DNA of 52,431 bases, filler included, from Perkinsus olseni (GCA_013115125.1; 2 parts of 2 records of this genome joined end to end with filler, not necessarily neighbours in it), one strand, 5' to 3'. Counted from the first letter of the whole stretch, positions 1,341 to 14,046 are shown. Made by a program: numbers and translations. The notes: a model not told the origin generated them from the letters alone.

Positions 1341-4300
1341 TCATCGTCGCCTCATGCCCTCCAAGATTTCCCTACAAAGATACGATCTTATGCCATATAG
1401 ATGTATTCGTCTCGCGGATCGGATGCGAAATCAGCGTCTCCGGCAAGTGACCAGAATAAGCGTACCGCCCTTCGCACTCAGAAACTCAAGTACGGCGTGC
1501 GACAGAAAAACAGGGGCAATCGTACATCAATATTTTACGTTTCACTCGCTGTCATCTTCTAGCGTAGTTGGAGTAACTCGCTGCTTCACAGCACGTTTTT
1601 CCTCAGTGGACTCATCTCCAACCGAATCATCAGGGCTCGTCGAAGACGGTGTCTCGTCCGCTGGAGTGCTCGGATGCTCCCGGTGCTCGCCGCGTTGAGC
1701 CAGCAACCTTGTCTCGAGATTCTTCCACTTCGTCTGAGGAGATCAAGGACGCCATTACCGCAAAACCGGTTTGCTCCGGCTCAGTTGGGAGGTCTCTGTA
1801 GCGATCGACACGCTGCTTGACGAGATGCCATATAAACACTCTGTCGGAAGAGTTCGGAAGAACACTCGTGGATCCTAGTTGACGAAACAGTCGAAAAACA
1901 GTCCCGGTTCTCGAGAGAGACGATCTCAACCCCATCAGAGTGGTTACCCTAATTTCATTGCAAGTGAGCTCTTTCCAAAGCAGAATGCTCTTGCCGCCGC
2001 CTCGAGTAGCGACAAGCCCTCCTGCGCAGCCGGTGAGCTCATCGACGTCCTCGGGGTTGCACACGTCCTCGCTCGCCTCGGCCGACTCCCGTTCATCTTC
2101 ATCATCTGGCGTCTGATGGAAGAACACGGGTGGAATTGTCACTTTCACAGGAACACATAGAAGGTGTCACTCCACTCAAGGAAGAGAATTACTTTAACAA
2201 AGATCGGTCTACGTGATCAGCTACGACCGGGCTACGAAAAGAAGCATGAAAATGACACAAATCAGAGATGCCAAACGAGGCGGCAACGAGCATCCTGAAC
2301 GCCCAGATCTTGTGAATTTAGGTGAACCAAAGGTTTAAAAAATACTCACTTCCGGTGGCGATGGCGTTTCCGCTTTAGGAGTCGCCGTTGGACTGCTCGC
2401 TTTCTTCCCGGGGTTTGACCCCGTCAAATACATCCTTATCGCACCCGTGGCCGCACCCGCAAGATTCCTCGCTCGCACAGCCAAGATATGATTCGTGCCG
2501 TTGAACAGTCGTGCATTGCAAGCGATTCGAGACAGGTGCCGCTCAACCTCATGAAGGGAGCTGTACTGTCGCCGCGCTGAGAAAGAAGAACCATGGCCGG
2601 GAGCTTAAGACGCCATGCTAACATCCGAAAGACCCCGGGTTCGAACCCTACATGCTAAATCACGTAGATCGTCCAGTCCGATAGGCTTTTCCACAACCTG
2701 CGTATATTCAGTTCCCGTCGGCGCATAATAGAAGTCCGCGAAGGCCGGGTTTTGCATGAGGTCGTGAGCGATCTTCAACACGACGTGATTCAAACGATGC
2801 TTCTTCTTCTTCAACTCCGACAAGACCGGATCGTGGCTGGCCTTGATGTGACCCGAAGATCTCCGCTTCTCGCCGCTCTCGAGTTGCCGTTTCCGTTGAC
2901 GGGCCAGGACTCTGATATTCCACTCGCTATCAAATGCCTGACAGAAATAAACCAGAATGAACACCTGCTGGGGATCGAACCGGGGACCTTTCGGTTACCC
3001 ACTCACCTCGTGATAATATTGCTTCCACAAATTGATATGCCTTTCCTTCTCTTCTTTGTCCGCATCTGTCATCGTCCCAAACCAAGCCTTGTTACGGGAG
3101 CTCGACGAGTAGCCGTACAGCTGCGGCGGGAGAATAATATCTACAACCGTGTCCGTCAACCATATAATACCCGTGCATCAACTTTAATGGCATATCTTCT
3201 ACTGATCACTTGCCAAAAAAATTGGTCATCCTCATCAAAGTTTGATGGGGATGACCAATTTTGGTCCCTTCGGAGAGCTTCCAGAAGGGGCCCTGCGTGA
3301 CTAATTTGAGCCCGATCATTATTATTGAAAAAAGGGCATTCCTACTAATCGGTAGTATACCAAGATCAGTGATAAGAAACAAGTCTCACCCGTGATGCAC
3401 AAAAAGTGCACAAAAATCCACCGGTAAATTATGGCAAGCACTTTTTTTGGTTTCGGGTCCTCCGACTGTCACCAGGGCTGCTATCCAGCCGAGCACCGGT
3501 CGCAGTTGACCTTCGTGGTCACCGATGAGTAGTCCGCCTTTTGATGGCAAGCACTGGATGAGTGATTTGAATAACCCGATATTTCCTCAATTCATTCAGG
3601 ATGATAATAATGATAAAATTGTTTTCCGCTCAGCTCAGCAACTTGCGCCTCAAACACTCAGAATGAACGCCGACAAACGAAAGGGCGTCAAACGAGGGAC
3701 CTCACCTCGTGGGAGCTTTTCGGTATCGGTGTCGACGCTCGAGTTGAGCTGCAAGTCGGGAGATCTCAGGCCCAGTTCTCTCCGCCGTGCGTCAACTGCT
3801 TCATAAAAATCAAACTCTTCAGGAGTCCTGAGAGTGAAAATATGAAAAACCAACGAATGGCCGTTTCACAATCAACTCAGGTGCATGGCATAATCGTCGA
3901 GCGAGAAACATCCAGTTTCGGAGATTCTCGCACGGCATTGGCTGGGCTATGAACCTTCGAGCATGCACCAAACAGACTCACCTTGCGAGAATCTGATTGA
4001 GATGATAATCGTCGGTGGCGATCGTGTCCACCTCGATTCCGGAGTTATGAAGGGCCTGAAAAAAATCGTAATCCTCGTGAATCACCGTCGAAGGAAAATG
4101 AAAACTCTCCGGCAATGTACTTCTCTCAGCCGATCTCTTCGCTGCGCCTCCGCTTCCCTATTGCCGCGATCGTTGAACATGCCGTGTCGGATGACCAGGG
4201 CGTCTTGATCTACTCACAAAAACCATGTGGGGGAAAAGCCGCGGAGGTTCGATCCCCGGGCCTACCCATTTTTTCTCCTGCTTTTTGTAACATCCCTTCC

Positions 4301-11399: not shown

Positions 11400-14046
11400 T
11401 CAGCTCCTGCCGAAGGTCAGCGCCAACCTAAGATTCCCTCTCATTAGTTCATACAATCACGAACCCACCCACAAGAATATCCTCAAGGTCGAGCTTACAA
11501 GATGCAAAATAGGTCAACTCCAAGCACACTTACGATCGATAAAGAGTCTCCTCCATTCGTAGGTACGATCATACCACCACACATCTCTCCCGAGCTACTC
11601 TTCATCGCATCAGTAGCGGAGCTCGGCGCCTTGTGCCTGCAAAGCCAGTCCGAAATTTCCAAATTTTCCGACAATCTCCATTTTCCTCGATGACCGCTTC
11701 TCCCTAATTGGCGGAAGCATCTTTCGCTCAAGATACTGCCCTCCTTAACAAGGGTGCCATTTCGGTATGGACCCGGAGGGTAGATTTTCACAAAGCGACA
11801 TGCAGCAAAACACAGCGATTCAAAGCCTACGCTTAGTTCTGTCTGAGTCGTTTGTTATAACAAGAAACGACGAGCCCCGTAAGAATTCTTCCCCGTGCGT
11901 TGCGAGGATACTACATCAGTGCATTCTCCTTCCGCCGAGGCTGCATCGAGTCCCCTGCCCTTATAAACAGCTCCGCTTCGAGCTGCGCTTTGATCTCCAT
12001 CTTTTCGCTCGCCGACAGGGCCGAGTCCGTCGGAACCGGATTGACGGCAGCTTCTCGAACCAGCCTTATGTATCTTAAAATACACTCGCATTTGATTTTT
12101 AAACTAAATTTTCAATTTTTGCTACTCATTCCCATTCGAATATTAGAATATCCCAATGGTTGGAATTTGCAATTTCCAAATTAACTCGGAACACTGTATG
12201 CCCACTTGAAAATGATTTCATTCAAAAAATAAACTTGGCAAAAATGATTTTCTAATCCAAAAATTCGCATGATTTAACATCGCTTTCAGAAAATCCCGAT
12301 GAGAATCCCTTCATATAGCGGTTTCAGAAGCCGCTCTCTTTTCGCCTTCAAAAAAGATAAAACTCGTACTCGATTTTTTGCAGTATTTTTGGTGGAAATT
12401 TTAGGTCGGCCACGGATACTCCCCGGAGAAGCGAAATGATACGATTGGGAACGGAGGCGATAACAACGTCGAGGATCCGCGACGTTCCATCTTTAACCTC
12501 GGATACGACAACCAGAGGCGATTCAAACGTTGCAATATTCGAAATCAACCGCACGAGGTCGCGTGGCTTGGGATTTCCCAGAAAAAAATTCTTTACTCTA
12601 TGGTCAGATCGTTCTCTACTTCGCCGAGTATCGAACCACTCGTCCACGCACGAGTTGAGGTAATTGTTGGCCCTACAAGCCTTCTTTAAAAATGAACTAC
12701 ATTCTGCTTGGACCATCATCAGATTTCCCCCTAATTCTCAACAGCTCTGTCTCTACTTTCCTGTATTTTTCTATTCTCTCCCATACGTTCCAGAGCAAGA
12801 TTCGTCCAACGACCACCGATTTTATTCGTTCACAAGGGTCTAATAAATCCGTCGACCCGGAAATATCTTCGAGGTCGAGCTTGCACTCCACAGACGACAA
12901 AGATACTCTCCCTCCACCACTATTACGACTCAATCTGCCTCTCCAATCGCTTGAGCTCCGATCGTCCAAAAAGATTCTTCGACGGCGCGTCGAAGCTAGC
13001 AGGATTCTGTTTCAAGTAATGTAGCATAACCAACAAGATACGCATTCTCTTGTCCGTGATCTCAACGTTCTTCTCCGCGGCCTGAGACGACGGAGCGATG
13101 CAAAATAATACCAACAATCGTGAAAAACTTTCTAAATTGGCATGGAAGCCAGTGGCGCTACAAAACATCACTAAAAGAACCATGTACTGTTCGAAGTTAT
13201 GGAGGAACATATCAACCGAGGTTTGACCTCGTCATTACGGAGAAGGAAAGCACATCAGTTTCGAGCCCAGCACCGTTGGACTGACAGCCGATGTAGACAC
13301 ACTTGTGCATCGGCGGGCCCTCTTAGAGCGGAAAACCCTGGCCGATGCGCACAGGAAAATTACGGTCAAAAACCAGCAGAAGAAAATGCCATTGCGTTAA
13401 ACGAAATTCACCGCCCCAGAAAGTTTACCCAATCTCGTGAAGGACGACATTGCCGAACAATTCGGAACGATCCGCAAATTCCGAAAAGTATGAGTAAATT
13501 TTGACCCTCCCCTCAGATGGCGACCTCAAATCTCTTGACCTCCTTTTCGACACGAAAGACGCGAAAATCAGGATGGGGAGTTACAACTCGGACGAACGAA
13601 CTATCACCGAGCGCGAAGGTAGAATTGTCCACTTCCCGGGAACTTCTAACAGCCTTTTTATTAGCGCCATACTGAAAATTAGACTCTCGCGATCACCGCC
13701 CAGAGAACACTCGCTAGGAGGAGAAATCGTTGAGCTGGGAATAGAACCCATGCCTCTCAATACCGATACCTCTCCCATCCCGGCGTCTATGGGATTTCTG
13801 TGATTACAAACCTTTTAGGGAACTCGATATTTCCCGAAAATTCCGATCTAATTTTTCCCGTAAAAAATTAGAAACTTTTCATCCAATTGTAGTCCAAAAT
13901 TTCGTAATTTTACCAACCGCAATTTCCAGAAAATAAAAATTACCCCCAGTCCCCGCTATCACCTGTTTTATTATCCCGCAGATCTTGCTGTACTCGCCAC
14001 GCTCGTCTGGAGCCACCGGTCCGCCATCTTCCGCAGTCGAGGTCAT
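11400..14046 (-). CDS. Upstream exons, probably the N-terminal part of the SNF2 gene (or a separate hypothetical gene)
   Basis: Candidate first exon MTSTAEDGGPVAPDERGEYSKICGIIKQ (14046-13963) ends at a GT donor. Further exon-like segments include KSHRRRDGR/ASVLWAVIAR, AAEKNVEITDKRMRILLVMLHYLKQ and YIRLVREAAVNPVPTDSALSASEKMEIKAQLEAEL. Not fully threaded. Confidence 0.5.
13731..13758 (-). other. Degenerate T-arm motif in predicted intron 13714-13769
   Basis: Minus strand reads gagaggcatgggttctattcccagctca. Confidence 0.45.

Follow-up and report, generated by a model that had tools for sequence, protein, structure and literature searches.

Introns of Perkinsus olseni largely composed of fragments resembling the 3' part of tRNA genes: a possible route of intron gain or rebuilding

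This report concerns a group of very short spliceosomal introns in Perkinsus olseni, a species of a genus that parasitizes molluscs, most of whose sequence is accounted for by fragments laid out like the 3' part of a tRNA gene. They were found in a stretch of 52,431 nucleotides (nt), filler included, in which two parts of two records of the assembly GCA_013115125.1 are joined end to end (hereafter the window; positions are counted from its first letter), and most of them interrupt a gene for a SNF2/brahma-type ATPase. Ten such fragments, here called pieces a to j, could be delimited. In either orientation, they form the bulk of four very short GT-AG introns in the SNF2 gene and of a fifth, a candidate, in a second gene. 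We lean, tentatively, towards the reading that these introns were born from, or rebuilt around, captured 3' fragments of tRNA genes.

The SNF2 gene is transcribed into a single spliced mRNA of ~4.14 kb, seen in the RNA contigs of four runs (four studies), and two partial P. olseni SNF2 proteins (P0008 and P0009) match its exons at 96-100% identity. The final model contains 32 introns, all of the GT-AG type, which sum to 8,422 nt, with exons summing to 4,150 nt; 13 of the introns are below 80 nt and the smallest measures 41 nt. Fifteen joints are printed in the RNA contigs, all of them reading CT..AC on the plus strand (GT..AG on the gene strand), and most of the other junctions come from mapping the P. 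olseni proteins onto the DNA. In 6976-8704 and 9200-10100, where a solver based on splice-site sums called too many introns, protein-guided mapping was used instead; the junctions in 10478-11227 are length-constrained solutions selected by homology to other SNF2 proteins, and those in 11384-11913 are the one solution returned by the length-constrained solver. The exon sums equal the RNA-contig coordinates exactly, both over 2,471 nt (10202 to 2652) and over 966 nt (13000 to 10100). At 1501 the RNA contigs show a loose end of poly(A). At 14072, the 5' end of the transcript, the contigs of two runs carry the same 9-letter loose end, which looks like the 3' terminus of the spliced leader of Perkinsus; the gene would then be trans-spliced at this position.

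An earlier note on this DNA, made from the sequence alone, had listed six introns of the SNF2 gene as carriers of tRNA-like sequence, and five of them stand (Table 1). Its call for an RNA check is answered for those with pieces a, b and c by joints in the RNA contigs, and for the 275-nt intron by the exon end at 10202; the joint of the intron with piece d is absent from the 15 printed RNA joints, and this intron was placed by protein mapping and exon sums. The sixth, 13714-13769, proved to be a segment of an 881-nt intron that is skipped whole in all four runs, and since it is no intron of its own, the introns of 47-75 nt number four and not five. The pieces occur in both orientations, as had been described, and the 275-nt intron does hold two of them, one per end. 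Piece a may reach back to a D arm of a Leu-type tRNA. Piece b is composed of a hairpin (CCGAAAGG) followed by AGGTC, CCCGG, TTCGATC and CCCAG, and the intron with piece d reads GT, then the piece itself (AGGTC GCGGG TTCGAAC CCCAG GGAGGGC G), then 15 nt. Piece f (10419-10469), with a perfect T arm, the acceptor strand ACCTGGC and the run TTTTTT, lies 8 nt from the donor of the 275-nt intron, and piece g (10211-10245) lies 8 nt from its acceptor site. The weaker piece h (loop TTCTATT) is found 202 nt from the donor of the 881-nt intron. Three pieces fall beyond the SNF2 locus: piece e (15659-15693), which has the form of a tRNA-gene 3' end with its terminator and is identical to piece d at 22 of 23 core positions (96%); piece i (~25900-25975), with a D-arm-like GGTAGAGCAC and the loop TTCAACT; and piece j (39403-39436).

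Table 1. Positions of the SNF2 gene, of the introns that contain tRNA-like pieces, and of pieces located elsewhere in the window.
Feature	Position	Strand and orientation	Evidence or content
SNF2/brahma-type ATPase gene with C-terminal bromodomain	1501-14072	minus	P. olseni proteins and RNA contigs
75-nt intron with piece a (2593-2648)	2577-2651	minus; piece antisense to gene	joint 2576/2652, four runs
69-nt intron with piece b (2962-3000)	2938-3006	minus; piece sense to gene	joint 2936/3006 (cut +1), four runs
56-nt intron with piece c (4238-4263)	4210-4265	minus; piece antisense to gene	joint 4209/4266, four runs
47-nt intron with piece d (8112-8141)	8097-8143	minus	zero-mismatch junction of protein P0009 and exon sum
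275-nt intron with pieces f and g at its ends	10203-10477	minus; both pieces antisense to gene	RNA exon piece ends at 10202; homology across junction
881-nt intron in 5' part of transcript, with weaker piece h (13728-13760)	13082-13962	minus	joint 13080/13962, four runs
Piece e, outside the gene	15659-15693	minus	AGGTC GCCGG TTCGAAC CCCAG GCCCTCC A TTTTT
Piece i, decayed, nearly full-length tRNA-like pseudogene	~25900-25975	minus	apparently non-coding DNA; no ARAGORN call
48-nt candidate GT-AG intron in a second, unrelated gene	39401-39448	plus	P. olseni (P0028) and P. marinus (P0029) gene models

In the introns with pieces a, b, c and d the piece starts 3, 6, 2 and 2 nt, respectively, after the first base of the intron, and the sequence that remains once the piece is set aside amounts to 19, 30, 30 and 17 nt, in every case less than the smallest SNF2 intron. 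The donor GTAGGT of the intron with piece d overlaps the AGGTC of the piece, and in the introns with pieces a and c the donor GTAGG continues into the antisense of the T stem or acceptor, both in agreement with the earlier note. The short introns amount to 8.3% of the intron length and hold four of the seven pieces located in SNF2 introns (binomial P = 0.0014, post hoc). Because the pieces stand next to the donor and leave remainders below the 41-nt minimum, creation or rebuilding of the introns is favoured, and simple insertion into an existing intron is inadequate, since what would have been there beforehand is shorter than a viable intron. Target-site duplications and terminal inverted repeats were found neither at the six introns, inspected by eye, nor by a repeat search of the window.

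A further case in a second gene suggests that the pattern is wider than the SNF2 gene. Gene models of both P. olseni and P. marinus skip exactly 16 codons at 39401-39448, a segment that reads GT, then piece j (34 nt, antisense), then 12 nt. The piece itself runs AAAA T ACCCCTC GCGGG TATCGAA CTCGG GACCT, that is, the antisense of a T-run, discriminator, acceptor, T arm and AGGTC, so that the GT of the candidate intron abuts the antisense terminator. A copy belonging to piece j also surfaced in the repeat search, at 39414-39436. A 72-nt intron at 39377-39448 was considered and rejected, as the gene models skip 48 nt. The same gene has another very short skip of ~15 codons in both Perkinsus models (~39546-39593), which is free of any tRNA-like piece.

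Chance is excluded as the source of the B-box and tRNA-part signal. The B-box motif GGTTCRANYCC has nine matches at seven loci in the window, where 100 shuffles give a mean of 0.50 and a largest value of 4. Five of the loci fall in the SNF2 introns, for which 0.095 are expected (five or more in 0 of 2,000 simulations), and none in the 4,150 nt of SNF2 exons; one of the other two is just upstream of the gene and one is in the remaining 36 kb. The earlier note had named a genome-wide comparison with shuffled introns as one check on its claim, and within this window the B-box excess in the introns agrees with it. Composite motifs behave likewise: AGGTC with a T arm in register occurs four times (0.00 expected, above every shuffle), and GTTCGA-N15-TTTT, which places a T-run at the canonical distance, three times (0.25 expected, matched by one of 100 shuffles). 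A looser T-arm pattern reaches about twice the simulated level (18 matches, 9.4 expected). The A-box motif is not enriched in the window (one match, 2.12 expected), which indicates that the pieces represent 3' parts only. The 11-nt B box is perfect in six pieces, although their stems have decayed, and degenerate in the four others, which were found by other means; as the B box was itself used in finding pieces, its intactness is partly an effect of ascertainment. A position-weight scan trained on the ten pieces, and for that reason circular, added only borderline matches, at 48250, 37326, 21356 and 10676.

Aligned on the T loop, the ten pieces follow the order of the 3' part of a tRNA: a variable loop (AGGTC in five of them), a 5-nt stem strand, TTCGAWC or a variant of it, five bases, and a 7-nt acceptor strand. 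In pieces f, e and j a T-run stands exactly one base past the acceptor, like the RNA polymerase III (Pol III) terminator of a tRNA gene, and since the terminator abuts the acceptor, the source would be tRNA genes or pre-tRNAs and not a tRNA-derived short interspersed element (SINE). The pieces are nevertheless not recognized as tRNAs by standard tools. ARAGORN reports no tRNA gene in the window, whether or not introns are allowed, and Rfam gives no match at its gathering score; with the tRNA clan and E up to 10, the sole match is 10419-10457, within piece f (E = 0.0018, or 0.00026 when 2.4 kb are searched), and the remaining pieces, among them e and j, have no match even in stretches as short as 161 nt. 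The T stem pairs at all five positions in pieces f and g and at two to three of five in most others, and the acceptor strands (GCCCTCC-A, ACCTGGC-T, GAGGGGT-A and CAGGTGT among them) differ among all pieces, which suggests old or sloppy copies of several tRNA genes and not of one element. The copies recovered by the repeat search have only a core of 23-27 nt in common. We regard the pieces as probable decayed 3' parts of tRNA genes, not working tRNA genes, an assignment that holds as architecture and not as a covariance-model match. The term tRNA-like, as used in the earlier note, thus survives on architecture and motif excess, in a weaker sense than was stated there.

The core AGGTC-SCSGG-TTCGAWC-CCCAG is also present in a real tRNA-Thr of an unrelated organism (locus L034) and heads a tRNA-derived SINE, so that CCCAG after the T loop is ordinary for tRNA-related sequence. 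A metagenome scan returned the core on at least 119 contigs, with the SINE head and tRNAs of unrelated organisms among them and no Perkinsus-like locus among the matches listed, and a scan of viral contigs returned none. Dozens of the metagenome loci (L001-L080), drawn from a small number of metagenomes, have a single SINE head of tRNA origin in common; it ends in AGGTCCCGGGTTCGATCCCCAG and presumably belongs to a host animal genome unrelated to Perkinsus. Several other leads were dropped: ARAGORN at lowered thresholds made 105 and 300 calls, which are noise; a CCA after piece g, which could have marked a copy of a mature tRNA, is shifted by one base from the register; BLAST of the intron with piece a against phage records gave chance matches in ERF genes only; and 10400-10475 matched short T arms of phage tRNAs without significance (E = 0.6 to 8). 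As a separate observation, the seven bases past CCCAG in pieces d and e (GGAGGGC and GCCCTCC) are reverse complementary to each other, piece d having the 5' acceptor strand at the place expected for the 3' strand.

The SNF2 locus has other repeats besides. A 565-nt intron (3141-3705) encloses a near-perfect 19-bp hairpin at 3210-3264, which gives weak matches to microRNA precursors only (best E = 0.02) and may be a small inverted-repeat element. Intron 9252-9406 contains a 28-nt exact direct repeat (9265-9292 and 9363-9390) with a 75% copy at 8808-8835 in the next intron, and intron 8231-8581 a 23-nt tandem pair at 8257-8310. Just upstream of the transcript start, a GTACGG-rich stretch (14565-14830) behaves as a multi-copy repeat, with variants on up to nine contigs per run at high depth and loose ends on both sides (~14564-14568 and 14830).

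A comparison with P. marinus, made at the translated level with one open reading frame (ORF) on a Logan contig (P0035) and with gene models, bears on the age of the introns. The exon part of this ORF is identical to the P. marinus bromodomain protein. It begins inside the counterpart of intron 2938-3006, and its first 11 residues equal the window intron read in the same frame; beyond that stretch, the introns of the two species diverge in sequence and length. At its other end the ORF runs two codons into the counterpart of intron 2577-2651, where the codons do not fit GTAGGGTTC and the sequence departs from that of the window over its first ~8 nt. In the P. marinus gene model, an intron is spliced out at each of the two positions. 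With two positions and one piece in common, these introns are not recent; both positions and piece b thus predate the separation of the two species, whereas piece a is not conserved at its start. The earlier note had proposed to test whether such positions are absent from sister species, and in P. marinus these two are present.

Direct observation covers the excess of the motif, the layout of the pieces, the splicing of the introns, the placement of the pieces in them and what is common to P. marinus; from these we infer a tRNA source, a capture step and an insertion that made the intron, the creation itself being a candidate. The source would be 3' parts of tRNA genes or pre-tRNAs, extending from the variable loop to the acceptor and in three cases to the Pol III T-run. 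Such parts should be plentiful, given the hundreds of tRNA gene copies in Perkinsus: the available text of PMC3706591 gives 349 copies for tRNA-Leu and 116 for tRNA-Gly in P. marinus. They might enter a gene as filler DNA when a break is repaired, or by retro-copying with truncation at the 5' end, and only fragments that could be spliced out at once would survive, which in an essential gene would explain their fixed position beside the GT. The sense AGGTC, or the antisense acceptor or terminator, would supply positions +3 to +6 of the 5' splice site right after the GT, and T-rich flanking sequence would supply the 3' end of the intron. For intron 2938-3006 at least, these events would have taken place before the two species separated. 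More broadly, and with somewhat greater reserve, the tail ends of tRNA genes, from the B box to the Pol III terminator, could be a recurrent raw material for new ultra-short Perkinsus introns, with AGGTC or the antisense acceptor/terminator giving the 5' splice site after the GT; this would be a transposase-free route of gain, and the retained B boxes may place TFIIIC in genes transcribed by RNA polymerase II (Pol II).

Several points weigh against this interpretation. All the evidence comes from a single 52-kb window, within which eight of the ten pieces cluster in 2.6-15.7 kb, a concentration that it leaves unexplained. The tRNA model of Rfam matches one piece in ten even in the 161-nt searches, most T stems are poorly paired, and the extent of each piece was set by judgement. 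Terminal repeats and target-site duplications are lacking, and the sequence common to the copies is confined to the core. The candidate intron in the second gene is based on gene models and not on RNA. Lastly, P. marinus, the only species compared, shares two of the positions and piece b, so that the comparison offers no contrast of presence and absence. Of the introner-like route by tRNA or tRNA-SINE capture that had been proposed in the earlier note, the tRNA ancestry is supported by the architecture and the creation or rebuilding is favoured by the geometry, whereas a tRNA-SINE source and a usual introner family were not recovered.

An alternative, which we consider possible though rather doubtful, is secondary invasion or replacement, whereby tRNA fragments or nested whole tRNA genes arrived later in old introns and deletions then shrank these to a preferred ~50 nt. 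That piece h lies deep in a long intron, piece e between genes and piece i in other non-coding DNA shows insertion that is not tied to the making of an intron, and the positions shared with P. marinus fit old introns as well. It would, however, take an insertion and a compensating deletion five times over, each deletion sparing the piece and removing nearly everything else, down to remainders of 14-30 nt when the smallest intron of the SNF2 gene is 41 nt long. It also leaves unexplained why the piece starts right after the GT in four introns, and why so small a share of the intron length holds four of the seven pieces.

Capture of tRNA-gene fragments is compatible with a further proposal, namely that the pieces, whatever their origin, are under selection as putative TFIIIC sites inside Pol II genes. 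The perfect B boxes amid decayed stems in six pieces, the unenriched A box, and the ten codons over which piece b is the same in P. marinus (at the translated level) while the remainder of the intron differs could all be read in this way. We consider it improbable: the search by B box accounts in part for their intactness, the four pieces found otherwise have degenerate ones, and the P. marinus counterpart of intron 2577-2651 has not kept the motif at its start. Slightly less probable again is a single mobile family, a tRNA-derived SINE or true introner spreading as a unit. The shared core does head a tRNA-derived SINE on many of the metagenome contigs, and pieces d and e are closely alike over 23 nt. 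The heterogeneity of the pieces and the lack of terminal repeats nonetheless make such a family unlikely, as nothing is common past 23-27 nt, there is neither body nor tail, both orientations and differing end points occur, the acceptor strands all differ, the T-run directly past the acceptor in e, f and j is tRNA-gene-like and not SINE-like, and the same core is found in a real tRNA-Thr. A chance or compositional artefact, for which the modest excess of the loose T-arm pattern could be quoted, is hardly credible when the specific motifs exceed every shuffle, or 99 of 100 in the T-run test.

The rest of the window has other features of its own. On the minus strand, 26300-30800 is occupied by diverged aspartic protease genes of the pepsin type (A1) arranged in tandem, with 26975-28183 and 29610-30767 as long ORFs; the long uninterrupted stretches of this array are unlike the SNF2 gene with its 32 introns. 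An aspartic-protease ORF of 385 amino acids shares 93% identity with a P. olseni protein, and together with the SNF2 exons it marks the window as nuclear DNA of P. olseni or a very close relative. A run of N at ~26201-26300 marks an assembly gap. A mucin-like ORF with long threonine/serine runs lies at 17024-17599 (minus strand), and its triplet repeat at 17418-17485 is complementary to an ACA-repeat tract at 26303-26370.

The origin of new spliceosomal introns is a long-standing question, for which transposon-like introners and rare captures of filler DNA are the well-documented routes. If our favoured reading is true, one recognisable class of cellular sequence, the 3' parts of tRNA genes, has formed minimal introns, which would provide a dated and sequence-tagged series of gains or rebuildings and would tie the amplification of tRNA genes in Perkinsus to the way its protein-coding genes are built. 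Should the pieces prove to be later invaders, the case reduces to the usual decay of repeats within introns. Introns gained when double-strand breaks are repaired with filler DNA have reportedly been described in Daphnia and elsewhere, some of them derived from organelle DNA. Such introns resemble the Perkinsus ones in that unrelated, non-mobile fragments are captured into exons, which agrees with the varied inserts seen here and with their lack of transposon hallmarks, but the Perkinsus filler is repeatedly of the same kind and no flanking short direct repeats were seen. Yeasts and mammals are known to have extra-TFIIIC (ETC) sites, single B boxes to which TFIIIC binds in the absence of Pol III. 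As at these sites, the B box of the pieces has no A box with it and stands in either orientation, near or inside Pol II genes; the pieces differ in adding remnants of variable loop, acceptor and terminator and in being intronic. The tRNA-derived SINEs and tailless tRNA retropseudogenes share with the pieces the B-box region from AGGTC to CCCAG, the 5' truncation and the scattering through introns, whereas the pieces show no A-box enrichment and no SINE body or tail, and have the terminator directly past the acceptor.

Introners and introner-like elements of Micromonas, Aureococcus, fungi, dinoflagellates and Amoebophrya are, according to the available parts of PMC11282704 and PMC7789003, likewise short spliceosomal introns with an inserted repetitive body that partly gives the splice signals. 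The Perkinsus inserts are instead heterogeneous pieces of tRNA genes in both orientations, with no full-length copy family in the window, no terminal inverted repeats and no target duplications. The accessible portions of that introner review (PMC11282704) and of the Amoebophrya genome paper (PMC7789003) make no mention of a tRNA-derived introner, and the full-text literature, subscription papers and supplements aside, yielded no description of introns made of tRNA fragments. Within the genus, the Dada transposons of P. marinus target tRNA genes and leave tRNA fragments at their flanks, as stated in the accessible part of Kojima and Jurka 2013 (PMC3706591). No Dada sequence was seen in or beside the piece-bearing introns, and the target TAGCTC in the A box, as given in the same part of that paper, would leave longer 3' parts than most of the pieces; the Dada elements and amplified tRNA genes reported there, belonging to the same genus, are nonetheless a plausible source of the fragments (PMC3706591).

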